Of a DNA stretch of 32,000 nt, positions 1-23,726 are shown piece by piece. The translations under genes were made by a program, and so were the position numbers. The stretch is from Nitrososphaerota archaeon (GTDB lineage: Archaea > Thermoproteota > Nitrososphaeria_A > Caldarchaeales > Calditenuaceae), in the NCBI GenBank assembly GCA_038741355.1, contig JAVYLC010000002.1, forward strand, positions 1 to 32,000. The letters are read 5' to 3'. Positions within the stretch are counted from its first letter, which is position 1. Every line of letters begins with the position of its first letter. The notes below the pieces were generated by a model. That model had not been told where the DNA came from. It made no database searches and worked only from the letters and a program-made list of their open reading frames with translations.

Positions 1-29
1 CAGCGGGATGGGGGCTTAGAATACCAAAC

Positions 30-293
30 ATGTATAAACAGCTGTTCCATCTAGAGGCTAACAACGGTAGAGAGGTCACAATATCCCTGTGGGTTGAGGA
101 TGGAATACCATGTTTCAGCTATGAGGATGGGGAGCCTATGTTTATTCCATCTGGCCGTCTGCCACAGTATGGTAGGGGGGAGTGTTATTGTAGTAGATGC
201 TGTCAGACCTTCTCCAACAGGGATAAATGCCCCAACTACAACAGAGTATTAAGGAAAAAACCAAGAAGAAAGAGAAATAAGAGCGTCCCATAG
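30..293 (+). CDS. hypothetical small Cys-rich protein with strongly basic C-terminal tail
   Basis: 87-aa ATG ORF with a Cys cluster (CYCSRCC...C) followed by KKPRRKRNK. No family recognised. It lies next to a gene fragment, so it may itself be a remnant. Confidence 0.3.
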   Translation: MYKQLFHLEANNGREVTISLWVEDGIPCFSYEDGEPMFIPSGRLPQYGRGECYCSRCCQTFSNRDKCPNYNRVLRKKPRRKRNKSVP

Positions 294-314
294 TTTCTGA
301 CAGTAGATGGTTGA

Positions 315-689
315 CTAAGATGTTCTACCCTCAGACAGGAAGGCTTCAGACCTATACATTTTAAGACGATTAGAGGAGAGGTTCTCAGAATCTCAAGACT
401 TGTCTTTACAGGTGAAACCATAGATGCGCGTGAAGCCCTATCAATAGGTCTGGTCGACTATGTGGTTCCCAAAGAGGCTGTGAGAGACAAAGTCCTCGAA
501 GTAGCTGGGAAAATATCCCTCAATGGGCCGGGGGCTGTAAAATTCATGAGGAGATGGCTTGCCAGGAGCAGGTCTCAGAACATCCGAGAAGCCTTAAAAG
601 AGCTCTCCACTATGGCCGTGTCCGACGAAGCAGTGGAAGGCATGGGGGCGTTTATGGAGAAAAGGAAGCCTTCATGGGCATTGCAATAA
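315..689 (+). pseudogene. 3' remnant of an enoyl-CoA hydratase/isomerase (crotonase-fold) gene
   Basis: The frame is open only from 315, with an in-frame TGA at 312-314. It reads ...RISRLVFTGETIDAREALSIGLVDYVVPKEAV...VEGMGAFMEKRKPSW*, which is the C-terminal part of a crotonase (normally ~250-260 aa). The N-terminal half is absent. Confidence 0.6.
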
Positions 690-878
690 CAAGCATGCCA
701 GTTATTATGGTTGAGTTGCCGATTATCGTGAATGTGTGGCGTAATAAGTATTAGTTTCTGTCAAGCTTAGCCCACGATTTTTACCATGCTCGAAGCAACT
801 TAAGATAAGAGGGTTAGCAAGCGGCATGAGTGTATTGGAGAAGGTTGTTGGGGATTTATCATAGATCTGTCATTTTGC

Positions 879-941
879 ATCTCGATAACCGTAGGTTTCA
901 CTGCGGGACACGTTCTAGCTCAAGTCTTCGCACTAATGCCA
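879..941. repeat. left copy of a perfect 63-bp direct repeat (att-like)
   Basis: atctcgataaccgtaggtttcactgcgggacacgttctagctcaagtcttcgcactaatgcca is identical base for base to 5575-5637. Identity stops abruptly on both sides. Confidence 0.95.
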
Positions 942-1238
942 GACATCCGCTGTGAACACTATGCTTCATATGTCTGATTCCGGTCTTCCTACGATGAGCC
1001 CCACGACTTTTCTATTACGCTTGCATTACATGATATAACTACTTACTCGGATCCTACAACCATTAGAGTTCGAGGTAATATAGTTGTATGACTGGGTGTT
1101 GGAGAGCTAGACCTAGTATGACATGAGTATCAGAGATTCGTAATAGTTTATAGGGGTGTGGAGGTGTTCCGCAATATACTCCAAAATAGGCGGCTGAACA
1201 TGCTTAATTCGGACACTATTCAAAGATCAATCCAACCC

Positions 1239-1245
1239 TTATAAA
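1239..1245 (+). promoter_or_regulatory. TATA-like box for the 1275 gene
   Basis: TTATAAA is centred ~33 nt upstream of the ATG at 1275, which fits an archaeal short-leader or leaderless promoter geometry. Confidence 0.4.
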
Positions 1246-1274
1246 CAAGTTCGTAGATTAACATATGGAAGTTA

Positions 1275-1979
1275 ATGGATTCCTTGAAGAAAGAGTTTCT
1301 AGAGCTACTCGATAAGGATATAGAGTTCAGATACGCGGTGGCGGGATACCTTGGTTTATCTGAGATTCTGAAGAGGCTTGATGGTCTAGCCGAAGAGCAG
1401 GCTGAGCTTAGGGAGGAGCAGGTTAAGCTTGGAAAGGAGCAGGTCAGACTCGCTGAAGAGCTGGTTAGGTTTAGGGAGGAGCAGGTTAAGCTTGGAAAGG
1501 AGCAGGTCAGACTCGCTGAAGAGCTGGTTAGGCTTAGGCAGGATTTCAACAAGGCATTCAACCTCTTAAGCTTGAGGCTAAACAGGGTTGAGAGGACTCT
1601 TGAGAAGCTCACTGTAGACATTGAGGATGAGGCCAGATCTATCATAAGGTATAGGGTTAGGCAGGAGCTGGGGATAGACATAGAGCTTGGCTCCCTCACA
1701 CTACCAGACATAGAGCTTAACATTTATGGGGCATCCGATAACATTTGCATAGTTGGTGAAGCAACAGTTAGGGCTGGAGTAAAAATCATAGAAGGGCTCT
1801 TGAGAAAGATAGAAGACCTGAGGATAAGATACCCAGACAAGGTTAAGGGTGAGGTCATACCGGTAATTTACGCAAGTCTTCCCCTACCAGAACTGGTAGA
1901 GGAGGCTAGGAGGAGGGACGTATGGCTGCTCAAAGCAACACAAGACTTCTACAAACCCAAAACCCTAATCAAAAGGTGA
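1275..1979 (+). CDS. coiled-coil protein with C-terminal PD-(D/E)XK-like nuclease-fold domain (DUF3782 / PDDEXK_10-like archaeal family)
   Basis: 234-aa ATG ORF. The N-terminus is a heptad-rich coiled coil. The C-terminal core follows an alpha-beta-beta-beta-alpha-beta pattern, with an Asp in PDIELNIYG and the strand IVGEATVR. It is a paralog of the 2179..2649 product (LEIDIFC / VVGEVTTR). The family name is from memory, not searched. Confidence 0.7.
   Translation: MDSLKKEFLELLDKDIEFRYAVAGYLGLSEILKRLDGLAEEQAELREEQVKLGKEQVRLAEELVRFREEQVKLGKEQVRLAEELVRLRQDFNKAFNLLSLRLNRVERTLEKLTVDIEDEARSIIRYRVRQELGIDIELGSLTLPDIELNIYGASDNICIVGEATVRAGVKIIEGLLRKIEDLRIRYPDKVKGEVIPVIYASLPLPELVEEARRRDVWLLKATQDFYKPKTLIKR
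1408..1533 (+). repeat. in-frame 63-bp tandem duplication (2 units, 62/63 identical)
   Basis: Unit 1408-1470 is repeated at 1471-1533. It encodes REEQVKLGKEQVRLAEELVR[F/L] twice, 21 aa or three heptads per unit. A third unit starts (ttagg) and then diverges. Confidence 0.95.
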
Positions 1980-2178
1980 GAACACAACAAGGCAGCTAAA
2001 AAGCAAGACCATCACAAAATCAATATTACCCTACGGCGGGGCTGTCGGGCCGTGTTACTCCTATAAGCTTAATGCCTCTTCTATCTCCCTCCCCATTATC
2101 AGTCTGATGCCGTTTTTTCTGCCTCCATTCTAAGCTTCTCCACAATGTTTTCAGGAGCCGCTCCGACCGATAATATCG

Positions 2179-2649
2179 TCATGAACTGCTTCTTACCGTA
2201 TTTAGCGGTATCGTCGAAATACGGTAAGACGACGATACAGCTTCAACCCTTTCTAACAGCTTGGCTATCTCCCTGTTCATCTCCTCTTCGTCCCCGAGCC
2301 TTGTTGTAACCTCGCCTACCACGAGAGGGTTTTCGCAGAAGATGTCAATCTCCAGGACTTGGCCGTTCTTCACCACATATCCCCTGCCGACCCTGACGTC
2401 TTGATATCCAAGCTCTTCAAGGAGTACCTGTATGTATGCAGCTGCACGGATCTCGTAGGTGACCCCTAGGAGGGAAGCGAACTCCTCGAAACCCTCTACA
2501 ATCCTCTTCTTCAACTTCTCCCAAGCTTCCCTCAGACTCCTAACCTCTTCCTGTATCTTTTCGGATCTTTCTCTAAGTTTCCTGACATCTTCCCACGGTT
2601 TGTCCTGATCTCCTCTCATACTCCTAGCCTCCTTCCACGGCCGTTCCAA
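2179..2649 (-). CDS. paralogous coiled-coil/PD-(D/E)XK-like protein with a 3' end frameshifted by a 26-nt insertion (restored ORF would end at 2099)
   Basis: TTG start at 2649 with the minus-strand TATA-like CTTTATAG at 2673-2680. The product shares the LEIDIFCENPLVVGEVTTR core with the 1275 gene. After ...ERVEAVSS the frame is lost. The homologous C-terminus (KYGKKQFMTILSVGAAPENIVEKL...) continues in another frame down to 2099. Confidence 0.7.
   Translation of the reverse strand: MERPWKEARSMRGDQDKPWEDVRKLRERSEKIQEEVRSLREAWEKLKKRIVEGFEEFASLLGVTYEIRAAAYIQVLLEELGYQDVRVGRGYVVKNGQVLEIDIFCENPLVVGEVTTRLGDEEEMNREIAKLLERVEAVSSSYRISTIPLNTVRSSS
2191..2242. repeat. interleaved inverted repeats (A-B-A'-B', 13 nt each) created by a 26-nt inverted duplication
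   Basis: 2191-2203 tcttaccgtattt is the exact reverse complement of 2217-2229. 2204-2216 agcggtatcgtcg is the reverse complement of 2230-2242 at 12/13 positions. Segment 2204-2229 therefore equals the reverse complement of its own flanks at 25/26. Confidence 0.95.
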
Positions 2650-3238
2650 CTCTCCACCTGCAGTGGACAGGCCCTATAAAGAAAATTGTCTGCAACCACG
2701 GTAAAAACATTGCATACGTCAAGGCGGACAGCATTATTCTGGGTTTTTGTCAATTATGAAAGGTTGTGAGCCCGACGACCAGTGCTAGGGTTGGGATGGG
2801 GTTGATAGAATGCCGATATGAACCCTCATGACAGTCTTAATCCATATAGACTCTCCATAGATGGATGAGAGGGGTGGTGTGGCCGCCGAGAAGGAGTAGA
2901 GCAGCGGCTGTGAGGCTAAAGCTGAGAAGGCCTAGGAGGGAAGGAAAGCCTATGGAGCCTGATCGATGCTAAAGATTTGCAAGACATTCCGACTCCTAAC
3001 ATGTGTGACAGAAAAGGTGCGGGGCTTAATAAATCGATATGCATCTGATGAAATGATTATACTGAAGGAGAGACTCGAGGCTCTTGGATGATCACTCATT
3101 GGATCTCTTGAATCCGACACAAGTATAGAAGGCTAGCAAGGTTTTATAAAGCTTGGACGCTGCACCGACGTGAATTCAAAAGATAATGTTTAATTTCTTT
3201 TTGGGCATTAGAGGTCCTGCTAACACTCAGCTAACAGC

Positions 3239-4081
3239 TTATCGGCTTCTTTTGATGTAGTCTCTGACCTGTGCCTCGAATTTCTGGACTATCTGCTTTA
3301 GCCTCTCCGCCTCCTCATAAAGCTTAGCGTAGTCTACTTCTAAGTATCTGTGAACTATTATATTCCTCAGCGTTATGGCCTTAGCGAGCTCGTTTCCGAG
3401 CTCCGGGCTTATGACGCCATGCTCAGTGCATAGCCTCATGTAGTCTGCGTAGCTAAGAGCAGGCCCCCATCCCTTCGCGGACGCTATGTGCCTACACACA
3501 TCAGTGAGTGCCTCGACTATGAGCTGGCACCCTCTCTCCAGAAGCCTTCTGAGGACGGGTGATCGGGATACCTCTACCAAACCCTTAGACAGTACGTGTT
3601 CATCAAGGAAGCCCACCTCATCTTTCGCGAACCCCATCCTAGACATGACGACTTCGATGTTCACTTCTGATGGATTTGGAAGTGACAACCATTCTTCGAC
3701 ATTAACTCTTACGATCTCCGCATAGTATGGATAGCGTTCACTCACCTCTTTAACCAACTTCTCCAACAGGTTCCCTCTATCCACCAAGACTATGCCCTTA
3801 GTGACCACTTCCTTCTTTATCCTAATGTCGGCCCTATCTAGGTCGACTATGTCTATCAGGTCCGCGGGAACTTTCAGCCTTGTGGATATCTCCTCGACGA
3901 GACTGCATAGCACATCGTACTTATCGCCCGAGACAGTTACGGCCAAGTCGATGTCATGAGGAGCCCTACCCTCTCGGAGAGCTGACCCAAACACGGCGGC
4001 GAAGACCACATCTCCGAAACCCTTAACGACCTCTCTGATCTTCTCGACGAACTCATTGGAGACGCGTATAAGGTCCGTCAT
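3239..4081 (-). CDS. fused minimal nucleotidyltransferase (MNT) - HEPN (DUF86-type) protein
   Basis: 280-aa ATG ORF. The N-terminal half has the NTase signature FGSALREGRAPHDIDLAV (GS...DxD). The C-terminal half has the HEPN Rx4-6H motif in LRNIIVHRY within an all-helical region. Confidence 0.85.
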   Translation of the reverse strand: MTDLIRVSNEFVEKIREVVKGFGDVVFAAVFGSALREGRAPHDIDLAVTVSGDKYDVLCSLVEEISTRLKVPADLIDIVDLDRADIRIKKEVVTKGIVLVDRGNLLEKLVKEVSERYPYYAEIVRVNVEEWLSLPNPSEVNIEVVMSRMGFAKDEVGFLDEHVLSKGLVEVSRSPVLRRLLERGCQLIVEALTDVCRHIASAKGWGPALSYADYMRLCTEHGVISPELGNELAKAITLRNIIVHRYLEVDYAKLYEEAERLKQIVQKFEAQVRDYIKRSR

Positions 4082-4096
4082 CTCACCAGTCCAGCC

Positions 4097-4115
4097 TTGT
4101 CACTGACCGTGACAA
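4097..4115. promoter_or_regulatory. perfect 7-bp inverted repeat (TTGTCAC-N5-GTGACAA) between TATA-like box and start of the MNT-HEPN gene; candidate operator
   Basis: The palindrome lies 16 nt upstream of the ATG (4081). It is downstream of the minus-strand CTTATATATTAT at 4131-4142. Confidence 0.4.
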
Positions 4116-4363
4116 AAAGTAGTGTGGTCCATAATATATAAGCCTACTGGACTTAGCTTTAGGAAGCCGGCAACCATCAATATTTGAGCTGCTGAGACGA
4201 TCCAATGCTGTGGATAAGCTCTCACGCAGGATCAACATTAAAGTAACAACAGTCAATATAAACGATATAATGAATTTTAGTAATTAGTTTAGACTAAGAG
4301 CACGTTTTTAATACGTTCTCTATAAAAAAGGCCGTATTAAAAAACAAGTAGGGCTATAGCTGT

Positions 4364-5358
4364 ATGCCTAGCCTTCTAGCTACTCTTACGAAGTCGTCTC
4401 CGGAGAGTCCAGGCGCGAACTCTTCGGGCACTTCAGGGAATTCCAAGTAGTCTCCCCCCTCGGGCTGGCCCTCCTGTACAATAAGAGGTTGGTTGTCCTG
4501 TGGATGTGTCCCTCGCCATATTAGCTCTACCTCTTTGTAGCCGTTTGGGCTGAACCGGGGGTAGGTGTGGTTGTAACACAGTCAGTAGTCGAGGTCAGCT
4601 ACGGTCAACTTGGGCTAGCCTTGATGCGTGGAGGACTGTCGGCGGAGCAGGCGCTTAAAGCGTTACTAAGCGTCGACCCATTCCCAGAGGTTAGACAAGT
4701 TGCGATGCGGATAAGAATGGAGTCGTCGCAGCTCATACTGGTAGCAAATGTATACCTGAGGCCGGCCACATAGTCGGAGAAGGATTTAGTGTTCAGGCAA
4801 ACCTGATGAGGAGTAGTAGAGTCTGGGTGGAGATGACGGAAGCGTTTAAGAATAGTCGTGGGGCTCTGCATGAAAGGCTTTTAACGGCCCTCGAAGCGGC
4901 AGAAGCCGCTGGAGGAGACATAAGAGGGAGATAATCAGCCAGCATACTAGTTGTTAAAACCAGCTCTTCCGGCTCCATCTGGAGAGACAAAGTAATTGAT
5001 CTACGGGTAGAAGATCATCCTGAACCCTTAAAAGAACTGAGGAGGCTAGTTATACTTCATGAAGCCTATGAGTATGTTAATAGAGCTGATAGTTTGGTGG
5101 CGGAGGGAAGGATTGATGAAGCATTAGAAGAATATAGGAAAGCCTCGGAGCTTGCGCCTGACAAGATAGAGCTGAGATTCTGGCAGGCCTTAACCATGTA
5201 TCTACACGGAAGAAGGGGCCGAGGCTGAAGGAATCTTTAAGAAAGTATTCTCCGAGAATAGTGATTGGAAGATCATATTGACATCTCTCGCTAGGATAGG
5301 TTTGTTCAATGTAAAAGAAGAAGACGTGGAAAGAATACTAAAACCATATGAAAACTAG
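4364..5358 (+). pseudogene. DUF1028-family (Ntn-hydrolase-like) pseudogene
   Basis: Pieces in different frames match the family pattern: VAVWAEPGVGVVVTQS..LMRGGLSAEQALKALLSVDP..RQVA / NGVVAAHTGSKCIPEAGHIVGEGFSVQANLM...LLTALEAAEAAGGDIRGR*SASILVV / ...KKVFSENSDWKIILTSLARIGL. There are at least two frameshifts (~4700 and ~5205) and in-frame stops at 4522-4524 and 4932-4934. The 5' boundary (4364 versus ~4440-4534) is uncertain. Confidence 0.65.
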
Positions 5359-5574
5359 AACTCATTAATTCAAAGAATGTTGCTGTGAATTGCGGCAGTA
5401 CCAAGTGTATGTTCACCCACCTCTCAGTGGTGTCCCAATGAGGTGTATCGTTACAGCCACCATCCAGAGCTCGAGTGGCCTCCCGCAACAGCCAGCGTGG
5501 TCATACACAACGCTTGACTTCACTGGCTGCACAAAAAAGACTACCGCCATGTACATAATCCTCACCGAGTTTCT

Positions 5575-5637
5575 ATCTCGATAACCGTAGGTTTCACTGC
5601 GGGACACGTTCTAGCTCAAGTCTTCGCACTAATGCCA
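5575..5637. repeat. right copy of the perfect 63-bp direct repeat (att-like)
   Basis: Identical to 879-941. It covers the stop codon and the last two codons (..WH*) of the AEP-like gene, plus 54 nt of its 3' flank. Confidence 0.95.
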
Positions 5638-6501
5638 TGACCTGATCCTCCTGAACGTGTCTAGGATCTCTTGATCTAGTGGCTTATGCTTGCGCTTTCT
5701 CTTAACACGCCCGGTAATGTATGGTCCTATCGCTGTATAGGCTCTTTCAGCGATATTATCTCCCTCTCCCTCCTCATACTTGCGCCAAGCATGTGGAAAA
5801 TGCTTGTACTCGTTGGGGTCTGTCCAGTCTATGTGAAAGCTCTCCAGCTCTTCCGGTGGGATACAGACGGCCACCCTATCGACAGACCTGTGCAGGCTGA
5901 GTGGCGCAGTGAAAACTCTCTGCATATCGATCTTGTTCTCAACAACCACTCCTTCCTGGGGTTCTATCCTGCACGCTATATACTGGGTCACTGAATAGGC
6001 TACGTCTAGTGGATTAATCTTGCGAAAAAGCTCTGAGCTAAAGGCTTTTGGATGAATGTGAATGTGGGCGCCTCTCCCACTCCACTTGAAGAAAACCGAT
6101 CTTGTGACACCATGCTTCTCGAGCATATGTATGATCTCAATGGCCTTCTTGACAACCTTTCTCCAATCACAATCCTTAGAGTCTATATCCCACGTCGGTG
6201 CAGCGCCTATGATGTTCCCGCGGTCAGCTAAGTCGTCAGCTGATTTCAATCTCTCGTAGATGTTTGTAGTGGCGTAGTAAGCCCTCGGCCTCAAAGAGGA
6301 GAACCTATCCAATACCTCGATCACATCATTTTCGCTCCCTATCGTTAAAGGCCTACCCCGACTCCAATACCTGATCATGGGTCTAGTGCCATCGGATTGC
6401 TCCTCGCAGTGTACAGCAACCCATCTCCCGACACAGTACTCTGCGATCTCCCTCTTCACCTCGGGCCTCATGTAATGCCCTCTGACGTGTTCCCAGATCA
6501 T
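5629..6501 (-). CDS. minimal archaeo-eukaryotic primase (AEP) superfamily protein, PriS-like/primase-polymerase-like
   Basis: 290 aa. The three AEP motifs occur in order: PTWDIDSKD (DxD), KWSGRGAHIHIH (sGxGxH) and ENKIDMQRVFTAPLSLH. PriS-like N-terminal landmarks are present (REIAEY, RAYYATTNIYE). There is no zinc knuckle. The tail is basic (GRVKRKRKHKP). Its ATG overlaps the stop of the upstream ORF (ATGA). Confidence 0.75.
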   Translation of the reverse strand: MIWEHVRGHYMRPEVKREIAEYCVGRWVAVHCEEQSDGTRPMIRYWSRGRPLTIGSENDVIEVLDRFSSLRPRAYYATTNIYERLKSADDLADRGNIIGAAPTWDIDSKDCDWRKVVKKAIEIIHMLEKHGVTRSVFFKWSGRGAHIHIHPKAFSSELFRKINPLDVAYSVTQYIACRIEPQEGVVVENKIDMQRVFTAPLSLHRSVDRVAVCIPPEELESFHIDWTDPNEYKHFPHAWRKYEEGEGDNIAERAYTAIGPYITGRVKRKRKHKPLDQEILDTFRRIRSWH

Positions 6502-7292
6502 AGGATCTCTCCCGACCTCCTCTTCGCATCCATTATCCTCCTCACGACCTCCGGCGGAAGCTTATAATCTTCAACCCTTCTCTCAACCCTCCCCAAGACC
6601 ACTAGGCCGACCCCGGGCCTAATATCGACCTCGTGCAGGTATCTGCTGTGATTCGTCTGCCTCATCTTCTCAATTATTACAAACCTTCTCAGCTCTCCAC
6701 CTCTGAGAACTCTTCTGAACCTGATTATGCCATCCGCTATGTGCTCTATTCCCCACCCGAAGCTCTCAGCCGTCGTTATCGCATACTGACTCACGGCTAG
6801 TATCGTGGAGTCCCACTTCGATAAGACCTTCTTGAGGTAATAGCTGTATCTCCTCGCCATCGCGGGTCTGTCTAGCCAGAAGGCGGATAGTGAATCTATA
6901 GCGATCCTAGCCCTACCATATCCCAGCTCCTTCTTAGCCTCGATAATCTTCTCGACGAGCGCCTCCATATCAAGCGACTTAAGGCTCCACTTATCCTCCC
7001 TCCCCATCAAGGCGTCGATTATTATCAGCTTCCTTTCATTCGCGGCCCTCTCGAAGCCCATTCCAAACTGCGAGGCCTGTTTCACGATTGACTCCCTGCT
7101 CTCCTCCGTCGTGATGTAAATGCATTTATCCCCATCCAGTATGCCCTGGTTGATGAAGTGTATCGAGAAAATAGTCTTGCCGCAGCCCGGCTCTCCCGTT
7201 ACAGCGACTAAGAAGCCTTCAGGTACCCCACCCTCGATGAGGTCATCAATCCCCCTCACGCCTGTTCTAAGCCTCTTCACCTCGGACTCCAA
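6498..7292 (-). CDS. single-domain KaiC/RadA-paralog (aRadC-like) RecA-fold ATPase
   Basis: 264 aa with RTGVRGIDDLIEGGVPEG, Walker A GEPGCGKT and a Walker B-like RIAIDSLS. The ORF starts at a TTG (7292). A GTG at 7280 fits the ATTAATCATATT TATA-like box better. Confidence 0.85.
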   Translation of the reverse strand: MESEVKRLRTGVRGIDDLIEGGVPEGFLVAVTGEPGCGKTIFSIHFINQGILDGDKCIYITTEESRESIVKQASQFGMGFERAANERKLIIIDALMGREDKWSLKSLDMEALVEKIIEAKKELGYGRARIAIDSLSAFWLDRPAMARRYSYYLKKVLSKWDSTILAVSQYAITTAESFGWGIEHIADGIIRFRRVLRGGELRRFVIIEKMRQTNHSRYLHEVDIRPGVGLVVLGRVERRVEDYKLPPEVVRRIMDAKRRSGEIL

Positions 7293-7576: not shown

Positions 7577-7996
7577 CTATTTTGATCTTCTCCGCATTCC
7601 TGGGAGTTTTAGCGGGATGAACCTGAGCCCCAGGCTGTTGGCGAGGCTCTGGACCGCGTAGTCGTCTGTGACGACATATACTTCTTCAAACTTTTTTGAT
7701 AGCTCTAGGGCGGTGGCGAGTATCGACTCGTCTGTCTCTGATAACTTCGAGCCTCTCCTATGAGAGGCCTCTCTGACGGCTGTTAAAGCCTTGGTGGAGG
7801 GTTCTATCGTTTTGATGATGCCCGCGGCCAGCATAGCTTCTAGCCGGGCTACCTGTATCTCTCCATAAACCACCTCCCTAACCGCGAGATCCGTAGTATA
7901 GAGGTTTGCTCCCCCTCTGAAGCCCAGTAGAAGGGCGGCCGTGTCCAATACGTAGGCTCTCTTAGAGTCCGAGCCTCCTCCTGATCCTTTTCTCAA
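7577..7996 (-). CDS. PIN-domain endoribonuclease, Nob1-like, without zinc ribbon
   Basis: 139 aa with acidic PIN residues in YVLDTAA, AVREV, SETDESILA and VVTDDYAVQSLANSLGL; the last motif is typical of archaeal Nob1. No CxxC pairs follow. The ORF overlaps the nadK 3' end by 35 nt. Confidence 0.65.
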   Translation of the reverse strand: MRKGSGGGSDSKRAYVLDTAALLLGFRGGANLYTTDLAVREVVYGEIQVARLEAMLAAGIIKTIEPSTKALTAVREASHRRGSKLSETDESILATALELSKKFEEVYVVTDDYAVQSLANSLGLRFIPLKLPGMRRRSK

Positions 7997-8756
7997 GGAG
8001 CGTGACCCCTGAGGTTCTGACCAGCACGGTGCTGTGGCGAGACTTGGAGACTGTCAGCTCACCGCTTTCAAACTCGCGCCTGATTAATCCGTCAATCACC
8101 ACTGAGAAGGGCCCCCTTCTCCCCCTCATAAAAATCATCCTGTGCGCCGAGAATACCATTGGCCGGATATTCGTGATAGGGGCAACTGGCGTGGCTATGA
8201 TTAGCTCAAGCTCTTCGTCCACTAGCGGCCCACCTAGAGAGGTGTTGTAGCCTGTAGATCCGACGGGTGTTGAGAAGACCATGCCGTCCGCGACTACGTT
8301 TTGGAGCCTGAGCCTCTCCACCTCTAGGTCAAACTCGACGACCTTACCCGGCGAGGAGTTTGAGACATAGGCCTCGTTGACTGCGTCCGATATTGGCTCG
8401 CCGTCAACTGATATGTCGAGTCTCATGAACCTTTCCAGACTATAGTTTCCCAGGAGCAGGGATCTAACTGCGCGGTTTGCCTCATCGGGTGTAGCGTCCG
8501 AGAGGTATCCTCCTCGTCCATAGGAGATCGCTAGCACTGGGGTTTCAGGCTCCTCCAGTGAGTGTATTGAAGCAAGTATGGTGCCGTCGCCTCCGAGCAC
8601 TATTAGATAGTCGCAGCTCAGGGGCCCCTCCACTCCCCTCGCGCTCACTTCATAGAGATCATGTTCGCACCCATGCTCTTCCAAGATCTTCTTGAGCTCC
8701 GCCGCCTTACTCTCCGCCCCCATCTTGTCTTTTCTGTACACAACTATAACATACAA
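7962..8756 (-). CDS. nadK: NAD(+) kinase
   Basis: 264 aa with the VLGGDGTIL motif, NE..V, and the TPVGSTGYNTSLGGP signature. Confidence 0.9.
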   Translation of the reverse strand: MYVIVVYRKDKMGAESKAAELKKILEEHGCEHDLYEVSARGVEGPLSCDYLIVLGGDGTILASIHSLEEPETPVLAISYGRGGYLSDATPDEANRAVRSLLLGNYSLERFMRLDISVDGEPISDAVNEAYVSNSSPGKVVEFDLEVERLRLQNVVADGMVFSTPVGSTGYNTSLGGPLVDEELELIIATPVAPITNIRPMVFSAHRMIFMRGRRGPFSVVIDGLIRREFESGELTVSKSRHSTVLVRTSGVTLLEKRIRRRLGL

Positions 8757-22700: not shown

Positions 22701-23726
22701 CTACCTCGATTTAACCTCAGCCTCCTCGGCGTCCTCTATTCCATTCTCTGTGATTTTTATAATTACTTCACCCTCAGGCAGGTGTGGGCTGGAGACAAGC
22801 CGCACGATCCTCACATTCTTGCCTGCCGTTTTTCTTATGAAGATTCTCATGTGGCTTGTGTGGCCAACTATATGTCCACCGACGGGTGAGACAGCGTTAA
22901 ATGAGAAGAACTCGTCGGGCCGTGCCATGACCTGGTTAGTTACGACGGCTGCGAGGTTAAATGCGCGGGAGAGCCTGAGGAGCCGGTGCATGTGTTTGTT
23001 CAGCTTTTGCTGACGCTCCGCCAACATCTCTCTTCCGATATACTCGCTCCTGAAGTGGGCTGTGAGGGAGTCAATAATTACGAGCTTCACGTTATGCTCC
23101 TTGATTATCCTATCTGCCTTCTCGAGTAGCAGTATCTGGTGGTCGGAGTTGTATGCCTCGGCGTAGATGATCTTCTCAGCAACGCTGTCAAAATCAAGAC
23201 CCAAGTGTTTAGCCATCTGCTCTATCCGTTCTATCCTGAATGTGTTTTCGGTGTCGATGTAGAGTGCCGCCCCCTCTAGGCCGCCCCTCTCATAGGGGAG
23301 CTGGACATTAACAGCTAACTGATGGCAAATCTGGCTTTTACCTGAACCAAACTCTCCGAAGAACTCCGTGATGGCCTGGGTCTCAATCCCACCCCCCAGG
23401 AGACTATCAAGAGCCCTACTACCAGTTGTGAGGTGTCTTACGTTGCTTTTGAGAGATGCGAGCTCTTTCGCCGTCACCCAAGATATCTCGATAGACTTTC
23501 TGGCCAGGTCTATCAACTCTAAAGCCCTCTTCTCACCTATACCTGCCGCCTCTAGCTCAGCAACTGTAGCAGTCGCCAAGGCCTCAATAGTGGAGCAGCC
23601 TATCTCCCTCAGCCTCTCGACCGTCGCAGGCCCTACACCTGGAAGCTCCGAGATGTCACTATACCTCTTCTCCCCCTCCTTCCCCCTCTCCCTCTGAGGC
23701 ATCCCCAAGTCTAGGCTGGGCTCCAA
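22701..23726 (-). CDS. radA: DNA repair and recombination protein RadA
   Basis: N-terminal HhH ([12 protein letters not shown]), Walker [10 protein letters not shown], and [11 protein letters not shown]. Overall the archaeal RadA pattern. The ATG at 23702 fits the TATA-like box at ~23735-23748 better than the TTG at 23726. Confidence 0.95.

Follow-up and report, generated by a model that had tools for sequence, protein, structure and literature searches.

The 32,000-nucleotide (nt) stretch analysed here, positions 1 to 32,000 of contig JAVYLC010000002.1 from a Nitrososphaerota archaeon (hereafter the window, to which all coordinates refer), carries on its minus strand a two-gene operon that encodes a RadC-type ATPase (gene 1) and a minimal archaeo-eukaryotic primase (AEP; gene 2). 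Our analysis establishes the operon, the orthology of the ATPase to the Sulfolobus RadA paralog Sso2452, the AEP fold and conserved active site of the gene 2 product, and the conservation of the pairing, which is exclusive to the short form of the AEP family. On balance, we favour a native chromosomal operon whose two products work as one machine in DNA synthesis associated with single-stranded DNA (ssDNA) and recombination, that is, a repair or restart module.

RadA paralogs of the aRadC type occur in many archaea and have been the subject of more than 15 years of Sulfolobus biochemistry, with their role debated as that of a mediator or an anti-recombinase. The pairing offers a testable hypothesis for these proteins, namely that they recruit DNA synthesis to ssDNA or recombination intermediates or control it there. 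The primase-polymerase map also gains a new compact AEP clade with a split into short and long architectures, and these lineages of thermophiles are seen to have at least one AEP in addition to the replicative PriSL. An earlier reading of the stretch, made from its letters only (the sequence-only reading), could not assign the arrangement to a described system; likewise, no account of a KaiC or RadC protein paired with a primase, AEP or PrimPol was found in the available literature, and subscription journals may hold one. Both components belong to known kinds of protein; the conserved coupling, the short/long split and the AEP family itself appear to be undescribed.

Structure of the operon and identity of its products

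The operon and the conserved elements of its products were located as follows.

6498..7292, minus strand: gene 1, RadC-type ATPase, 264 amino acids (aa), TTG start at 7292
5629..6501, minus strand: gene 2, minimal AEP of the short form, 290 aa, ATG start
6498..6501, minus strand: ATGA overlap of the gene 1 stop (TGA, 6500-6498) and the gene 2 start (ATG, 6501-6499), read from the sequence
6507..6520, minus strand: purine-rich Shine-Dalgarno-like stretch within the end of gene 1, GGAGG (6520-6516) and GGGAG (6513-6509; GGGAGAG)
7173..7196, minus strand: Walker A (P-loop) GEPGCGKT, ATPase residues 33-40, from the sequence; at least 95% conserved in 41 AEP-linked partner ATPases
6885..6908, minus strand: Walker B region RIAIDSLS, ATPase residues 129-136, from the sequence; core iDSlSAFWLD conserved in the partner set
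6172..6198, minus strand: AEP motif I PTWDIDSKD, residues 102-110, with catalytic D105 and D107, both invariant in the alignment
6052..6087, minus strand: AEP motif II KWSGRGAHIHIH, residues 139-150; S141, G142, G144 and H146 invariant, H148 at least 90% conserved
5890..5940, minus strand: AEP motif III ENKIDMQRVFTAPLSLH, residues 188-204, with catalytic D192, from the alignment
5632..5712, minus strand: AEP C-terminal tail, with a disordered basic linker (GRVKRKRKHKP) and then an amphipathic helix (LDQEILDTFRRIRSWH), from the predicted structure and alignment

The two minus-strand open reading frames (ORFs) and their overlap, described by the sequence-only reading, were confirmed from the sequence, and GEPGCGKT, RIAIDSLS, PTWDIDSKD, KWSGRGAHIHIH and ENKIDMQRVFTAPLSLH were all found in the translations. 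As judged by sequence, the overlap indicates translational coupling of the two genes, and the Shine-Dalgarno-like stretch, which sits 5-14 nt upstream of the gene 2 start, may function in translation of that gene. An alternative in-frame GTG for gene 1 is present at 7280, 4 codons downstream of the TTG. The NCBI annotation of the identical AEP protein (P0001) begins at M11, giving a product of 280 aa, and with this start the overlap would vanish. The 290-aa ORF and the overlap are preferred because an alignment of 32 family members shows conservation of residues 1-10 and an invariant Y10. Chance in a single genome does not account for the coupling, since a 4-nt overlap like that in the window was found in 31 of 47 loci with the pair in other genomes. 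The neighbours of the operon encode a PIN-domain protein and an NAD kinase; in agreement with the sequence-only reading, no helicase or PriL was found fused or adjacent to the AEP among these window neighbours, and a bona fide radA gene is located elsewhere in the window (22701-23726, minus strand; Pfam Rad51, 5.7e-88).

In an NCBIfam profile search, the gene 1 product scored 361.5 bits against TIGR03881 (KaiC_arch_4; curated cut-off 247.8), and it matched Pfam KaiC (PF06745) at 1e-54. Its top match by far among PDB sequences was S. solfataricus Sso2452 (2W0M; 329.8 bits, residues 5-237), with about two-thirds identity over 233 residues. Sso2452 itself matches TIGR03881 at 392.5 bits, and the AEP-adjacent ATPases of Brockarchaeota and Bathyarchaeia fall with it at 373-393 bits; against the RadA, RadB, DnaB and clock-KaiC models, gene 1 remains far below each cut-off. 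On the strength of its TIGR03881 score, the 2W0M match and the placement of Sso2452 and the AEP-linked ATPases on the same model, we assign gene 1 as an ortholog of Sso2452 (also called aRadC, RadC1, SsoRal1 or 'Rad55'), a RadA paralog. The aRadC-type, single-domain KaiC-family RadA paralog proposed from the letters was thus borne out and narrowed to RadC1: the curated cut-off is passed, there is a single KaiC/RecA domain, Walker A and B are intact, and both motifs together with the catalytic core are near-invariant across the 41 partner ATPases. Identification as a circadian KaiC was rejected on the single domain, the length of 264 aa and a TIGR02655 score of 100.9 bits against a cut-off of 546.

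The aRadC proteins assemble with ADP into hexameric rings that hold nucleotide at the subunit interfaces; their ATPase activity is stimulated by DNA, and they modulate strand invasion by RadA and support resistance to DNA damage (PMC4080772). Sso2452 binds ssDNA more tightly than RadA does and inhibits D-loop formation (PMC8708640). The protein was also recovered with SSB-ssDNA complexes, and an S. acidocaldarius delta-rad55 strain was slightly sensitive to UV (PMC10003305). By orthology with these Sulfolobus proteins, the gene 1 product would be expected to bind ssDNA, to have DNA-stimulated ATPase activity and to affect RadA. It shares with Sso2452/RadC1 the single RecA/KaiC domain, a score above cut-off on the same model and a conserved acidic/basic C-terminal tail. 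In Sulfolobus and Acidilobaceae, however, the gene stands alone, with a downstream gene that is unrelated or on the other strand, whereas in the window, and likewise in 46 other species, its translation is coupled to that of an AEP gene. The stand-alone RadC1 gene of S. islandicus (CP046616.1; L090) has further repair genes in its vicinity: an endonuclease V gene lies ~0.5 kb upstream and a gene for the Y-family polymerase Dpo4 (PF00817) ~3 kb downstream, with a TIP49-like AAA ATPase gene nearby.

By motif conservation and predicted fold, the gene 2 product is a genuine minimal AEP, and it is probably an active enzyme. The three motifs occur in the order of the AEP superfamily, I (DxD), II (SGxGxH) and III (hD), as the sequence-only reading had claimed, and D105/D107, S141-G142-x-G144-x-H146 and D192 are invariant in 32 diverse members; in motif III, the invariant residues are E188, D192, R195, F197, T198, P200, L201, S202 and H204. 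Motif III aligns to the PriS motif 'DLKRILRLPSTLH'. The profile matches were weak: PF21686 (LigD_Prim-Pol) gave E=0.11 and 12.5 bits against a cut-off of 27.4, TIGR00335 (PriS) gave E=0.014 and 14.8 bits against a cut-off of 143.5, both confined to the motif I-II stretch, and the Pfam search reported no match to PF01896. A profile of the family searched against PDB sequences reached P. abyssi PriS at E=0.04. The sequence-only reading had named failure of the AEP motifs in profile searches as evidence against its call, and this outcome was nearly realised; as the profile scores are far below the cut-offs, the call rests on motif conservation and predicted fold, by which it is upheld. An AlphaFold model built on the 32-member alignment reached a pLDDT of 93.7 and a pTM of 0.85. 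In a Foldseek search of the PDB with this model, the best 50 matches by E-value were all AEPs (probability 1.00; E 1e-6 to 1e-4), led by M. smegmatis Prim-PolC and LigD polymerase domains (E about 1e-6, TM 0.55-0.61) and followed by a CRISPR-associated Prim-Pol (CAPP), archaeal PriS and human Pri1. The matches in a library of viral structures were generic AEPs, none of them closer to the model, and one TOTE conflict system primase was among the structural matches.

By the families' own thresholds, the protein is a member of neither canonical PriS nor LigD-Pol. PriS (PF01896, TIGR00335; PDB 1G71, 1V33, 1ZT2, 9F26) has the same fold and order of motifs I-III and a similar motif III (RVFTAPLSLH here, RILRLPSTLH in PriS), but the present AEP lies far below the PriS family cut-offs, separates motifs II and III by only about 44 residues where PriS carries a large inserted domain, and has a RadC-type ATPase as its partner with no PriL gene nearby. 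It also differs in having no zinc knuckle: as predicted from the letters, the alignment shows no conserved Cys/His cluster between motifs I and II, and the sole cysteine, C111, is unconserved. The bacterial LigD-Pol and Prim-PolC enzymes of non-homologous end joining and base excision repair (PDB 2FAO, 4MKY, 5OP0, 6SA1) are the best structural matches and share the compact size and short motif II-III spacing, but the PF21686 score is below its cut-off and identity is about 13%; no Ku, ligase or phosphoesterase partner was detected in the scanned window ORFs, and Ku and ligase are absent from the recurrent neighbours of the family. The nearest sequence relatives outside the family, from an exhaustive search (E 1e-7 to 1e-15), are fused PriS-PriL proteins with the PriL C-terminal domain (PriL-CTD) and AEP-helicase fusions, which are PolpTN2-like or of the types AEP-PriL-CTD-DUF3987 and AEP-MCM-wHTH (winged helix-turn-helix). 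These carry a PriL-CTD/PriCT and often a helicase in one polypeptide, whereas the short form has neither and the long forms described below bear another C-terminal domain.

The basic C-terminal tail noted from the letters is present and is followed by a predicted helix: in the AlphaFold model, pLDDT is <50 at residues 265-269 and the helix spans residues 275-289. The tail is specific to the family, its pattern R-x-R-K-H-K-P-L-D-x-E-I-L is conserved among short forms, and it is a candidate partner- or DNA-binding element. The segment LDQEILDTF at the C-terminus was considered as a PCNA-binding PIP box and was not adopted, as its first position is unconserved and the second aromatic residue is absent.

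Distribution of the family and of the pairing

When a single genome from each GTDB species was scanned, relatives of the AEP were found in 349 genomes; the family is confined to the TACK archaea and part of the Asgard group. The best 80 of these relatives were analysed as loci. They comprise Wolframiiraptor, Terraquivivens, Geocrenenecus, Benthortus and Pelearchaeum within the Caldarchaeales, as well as Brockarchaeota, Bathyarchaeia, Methanomethylicia, Culexarchaeia, Nezhaarchaeales, Korarchaeia, Thermofilaceae, Baldrarchaeota and Njordarchaeota. The 262 homolog clusters of the AEP are essentially all annotated as 'hypothetical'. The family is compact, as an exhaustive HMMER search of 1.84 billion representatives retrieved just 228 proteins at E<=1e-3.

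Family members are either short forms of about 285-345 aa or long forms of 419-516 aa with an added C-terminal domain. ORFs were called in the 80 loci and searched with both window proteins, with the following outcome for a same-strand RadC-type ATPase gene no more than 1 kb upstream.

Short form, 52 loci: ATPase gene present in 46
Long form, 27 loci: ATPase gene present in 0

The difference is significant (Fisher's exact p = 3e-16), and one of the 6 short-form exceptions has no upstream sequence to examine. The genes around the pair differ completely between the Caldarchaeales, Brockarchaeota and Bathyarchaeia loci, and a survey of recurrent neighbours identified no third consistently linked gene apart from lineage-level synteny blocks. 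The description of the two genes as hard-wired therefore stands: they are adjacent in most short-form loci, in several phyla and between unrelated flanks. Four genomes carry two family loci each, a short and a long form in CAZHGP01, JAWBZG01 and JAWBQF01 and two short forms in JAPDJI01 (L051, L056); the co-occurrence of short and long forms within genomes implies distinct roles.

The long forms (L046-L048, L053, L058, L059, L061, L062, L065-L068, L071-L081 and L087-L089; proteins P0111 and P0069) have at least two types of C-terminal extension, 'GRFQVMxLLQAARYYL...' and '...SHYAxGNI...WLLSHGPP', and never lie beside a RadC gene. No assignment of their C-terminal domain was obtained from Pfam, from hhalign against relatives containing a PriL-CTD or from Foldseek of the full model. 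Two long-form relatives from the representative search, P0315 and P0323, keep this domain but no longer possess the catalytic DxD and SGxGxH motifs; as AEP paralogs they are apparently inactivated, and they may be non-catalytic partners.

Several loci show local peculiarities. In Wolframiiraptor sinensis (L022; 2846-3520 and 4822-5004), an insertion of ~1.3 kb splits the RadC gene that precedes the AEP, and in L033 and L054 this gene is split by truncation or frameshift, with the AEP ORF also truncated in L033. Insertion of mobile elements or faulty assembly could account for these cases. In the closest Nitrososphaerota relatives (L001/L002; 9024-9575), a gene for a Holliday-junction-resolvase-related endonuclease (PF10107) lies just downstream of the AEP, a linkage that is not general.

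Possible roles of the pair

The evidence supports a pair of products that would be made stoichiometrically, an ATPase of the RecA family predicted to bind ssDNA and to form rings and a minimal AEP. The repriming or damage-tolerance role suggested by the sequence-only reading is plausible. In the repair or restart module that we favour, the RadC-type ATPase would bind exposed ssDNA at stalled-fork gaps, resected ends, RadA filaments or D-loops and would recruit or activate the AEP there. The AEP would then synthesise DNA or RNA at the site, either through priming on a gap or through elongation of a 3' end that is invading or recessed. As short forms are tied to the ATPase and long forms are free-standing, the ATPase is proposed to act as an accessory or targeting subunit that stands in for the extra C-terminal domain of the long forms. 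A further and more tentative proposal is that a second primase-polymerase system, so far overlooked, is widespread in TACK and also exists in some Asgard archaea, in which a minimal AEP has RadC1 as its accessory subunit instead of PriL or PriX. If these ideas are true, the long enigmatic aRadC proteins gain an enzymatic partner, a new pathway of recombination- or gap-coupled DNA synthesis exists alongside the canonical PriSL, and the short form has traded the C-terminal helper domain of the long form for an ATPase.

A number of observations weigh against this module. For at least four to five of the short-form AEP genes (L013, L051, L057, L064, L084), no ATPase gene lies within 5 kb, so that the AEP can be unlinked from the ATPase; conversely, the Sso2452 orthologs of S. 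islandicus and of an Acidilobaceae metagenome-assembled genome have no adjacent AEP, from which it follows that the ATPase does not need the AEP and that the ATPase family is broader than the pairing. The likeness to repair AEPs extends no further than the general fold (TM about 0.6, about 13% identity), and the nearest sequence relatives are replicative enzymes of the DPANN and mobile genetic element (MGE) type, not repair enzymes. The physical complex, the enzymatic activity, the substrate and the repair or restart role are points that we infer.

Those replicative relatives are part of the case for a primosome-like helicase-primase, in which the ATPase would be the translocase or helicase, as in DnaB and T7 gp4, and the AEP its primase, (re)starting replication on ssDNA. 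The hexameric rings and DNA-stimulated ATPase of aRadC proteins (PMC4080772), weak matches of the ATPase to DnaB_C and phage DnaB models, and the fusion of the nearest AEP relatives to PriL-CTD, DUF3987 or MCM helicase modules are consistent with this, as is one lineage in which the pair lies 4 kb from MCM-GINS. We nevertheless consider it unlikely. The reported activities of Sso2452/RadC1 are ssDNA binding and effects on RadA, with no helicase activity among them (PMC8708640, PMC4080772), the DnaB-family scores are far below cut-offs, and the short-form AEP has no PriL-CTD or PriX-like initiation domain. The resemblance to DnaB-DnaG and T7 gp4 is one of analogy, a RecA-fold ring ATPase combined with a primase; their primase has the Toprim fold and not that of an AEP, and the ATPase here is at most a putative helicase. 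The MCM-GINS(Sld5) neighbourhood is that of the Terraquivivens-like loci L003/L004 (928-3506; ~4 kb from the pair) and is not a general linkage. A regulatory pair, in which the KaiC-like ATPase would answer a cellular signal as a switch or autokinase and so gate the AEP, with no action of its own on DNA, is more doubtful again. Membership of Pfam KaiC and weak MEDS and GvpD matches agree with such a role, and Makarova and colleagues reportedly proposed single-domain KaiC homologs as archaeal signalling hubs in 2017. The orthologous group, however, has demonstrated ssDNA binding and effects on recombination, and about two-thirds identity across phyla is more in keeping with a core DNA-handling enzyme than with a lineage-specific sensor.

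It is very unlikely that the pair is an anti-virus or conflict module acting on invading DNA in the manner of CRISPR-associated Prim-Pols or TOTE primases. A CAPP and a TOTE primase do occur among the structural matches, and the AEP gene adjoins a variable low-GC region with a toxin-antitoxin-like gene, but those matches reflect the generic AEP fold, PADLOC gave no match for the AEP and only a weak mad8 match for the ATPase (29.6 bits), only one (JAPDJI01) of the four genomes with two family loci has two short forms, and the pair has been conserved vertically in several phyla, amid housekeeping genes. Hardly credible, too, is the suggestion that the AEP is the divergent replicative PriS of its genome. 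Its top profile matches, though weak, are to PriS, its motif III resembles that of PriS, and neither PriS nor PriL was found in a scan of the ORFs of the 32-kb window, which thus holds no other primase gene. Opposed to this are the TIGR00335 score, the missing zinc knuckle and insertion domain, the four genomes with two family loci each (three with a short and a long form, one with two short forms), and a related Caldarchaeales genome in which a family member coexists with PriS and PriL encoded elsewhere.

That genome is Candidatus Pelearchaeum maunauluense 146_bin.21, in which contig NODE_455 (locus L057) carries the AEP family member. Its annotation places a canonical priS (K02683; eggNOG arCOG04110; Pfam DNA_primase_S) on NODE_49, priL (K18882) on NODE_28 and an arCOG01171 KaiC gene on NODE_10, and leaves several NODE_455 genes, including gene _20 between eRF1 and TrpRS, with no KEGG orthology number (PMC10547907 supplements). 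Gene _20 is likely the position of the AEP family member. In P. maunauluense, the AEP family member is therefore an extra paralog, given the separate canonical priS and priL, and we infer the same for the genome of the window; further pointers in this direction are the genomes with both a short and a long form and the occurrence of family members in Asgard and Korarchaeia lineages. A search with a P. abyssi PriS fragment and the family hidden Markov model found no canonical PriS among the ORFs of 89 loci. The concern that the 290-aa protein might be the only PriS ortholog does not hold for the family member of the related genome, and it probably does not hold for the genome of the window. At L057, no RadC gene lies within 5 kb of the AEP and the arCOG01171 KaiC gene is on another contig, so the linkage is breakable with neither gene being lost.

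The repeat-bounded insert and the surrounding genes

The 3' end of the AEP gene coincides with one copy of an exact 63-bp direct repeat (879-941 = 5575-5637), as the sequence-only reading had stated. The repeat bounds an insert of about 4.6 kb and low GC (interior 942-5574), and the following features were located there and in the adjoining flank.

879..941, no strand: direct repeat copy A, at the distal insert junction, exact with sharp edges
5575..5637, no strand: direct repeat copy B, extending over the final two codons and stop of the AEP gene and the next 54 nt
3239-4081, minus strand: MNT/HepT-type nucleotidyltransferase-HEPN fusion, insert interior
1275-1979, plus strand: coiled-coil ORF, insert interior, paralog-like to the ORF at 2179-2649 (minus strand)
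2179-2649, minus strand: coiled-coil ORF, insert interior, sharing its C-terminal domain with 1275-1979
4567-5228, plus strand: DUF1028 gene broken across frames, then a TPR fragment; pseudogene pieces, insert interior
462-689, plus strand: crotonase (enoyl-CoA hydratase) remnant, last ~75 residues, in the flank beyond copy A

Decay and variability mark the first 5.6 kb of the window. The GC content rises from 0.44-0.50 over 1-5600 to 0.50-0.52 in the operon, and the DNA beyond it has 0.53-0.57. The sequence-only reading had offered, as one possibility, that the pair is the replication module of a decayed integrated replicon, i.e. the remnant of an integrated plasmid or virus. The exact repeat abutting the AEP gene, the GC of the pair slightly below that of the downstream chromosome and the MGE-type primase-helicase fusions among the distant AEP relatives would suit such an origin, but we give it next to no credence. 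The pair lies outside the repeat-bounded segment, occurs among unrelated housekeeping genes in many phyla and has no adjoining integrase, helicase or other MGE gene, and its ATPase is a conserved cellular RadC1 ortholog. The reading was rejected because the operon is outside the repeats and the insert merely uses the 3' end of the gene as its junction; copy B is an insert junction and not part of the operon's function.

Domain scans of the interior ORFs detected no integrase. Rfam (at gathering thresholds and at E<=1) and ARAGORN found nothing at the repeat and operon region, so the repeat is not a recognisable tRNA or non-coding RNA target, and the insert targets the 3' end of a protein-coding gene, not a tRNA gene. 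The repeat is not conserved downstream of AEP orthologs, save for a 37-nt partial match in the closest relative (L033). The coiled-coil ORFs at 1275-1979 and 2179-2649 have no Pfam match. The former shows a 21-nt tandem periodicity at 1386-1532, with 5 copies in register encoding a heptad-like coiled coil (EEQVKLGKEQVRLAEELVRF), and gave weak PADLOC matches to a 'diadenylate cyclase' model (C3a181) and a DRT model (RTasRmuC).

The rest of the window is ordinary chromosome, with genes for NAD kinase, a glycerol-1-phosphate (G1P) dehydrogenase-like protein, an agmatinase-family protein, an ABC transporter, TiaS, Pcc1 and an ESCRT-III-like protein, among others. Directly upstream of the operon, the PIN-domain ORF (7577-7996, minus strand) overlaps the end of the NAD kinase gene (7962-8756, minus strand) by 35 nt. 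Between this ORF and the RadC start is a 284-nt intergenic gap with an AT-rich TTAATCATA element just before the start, which may be the site of the operon promoter.

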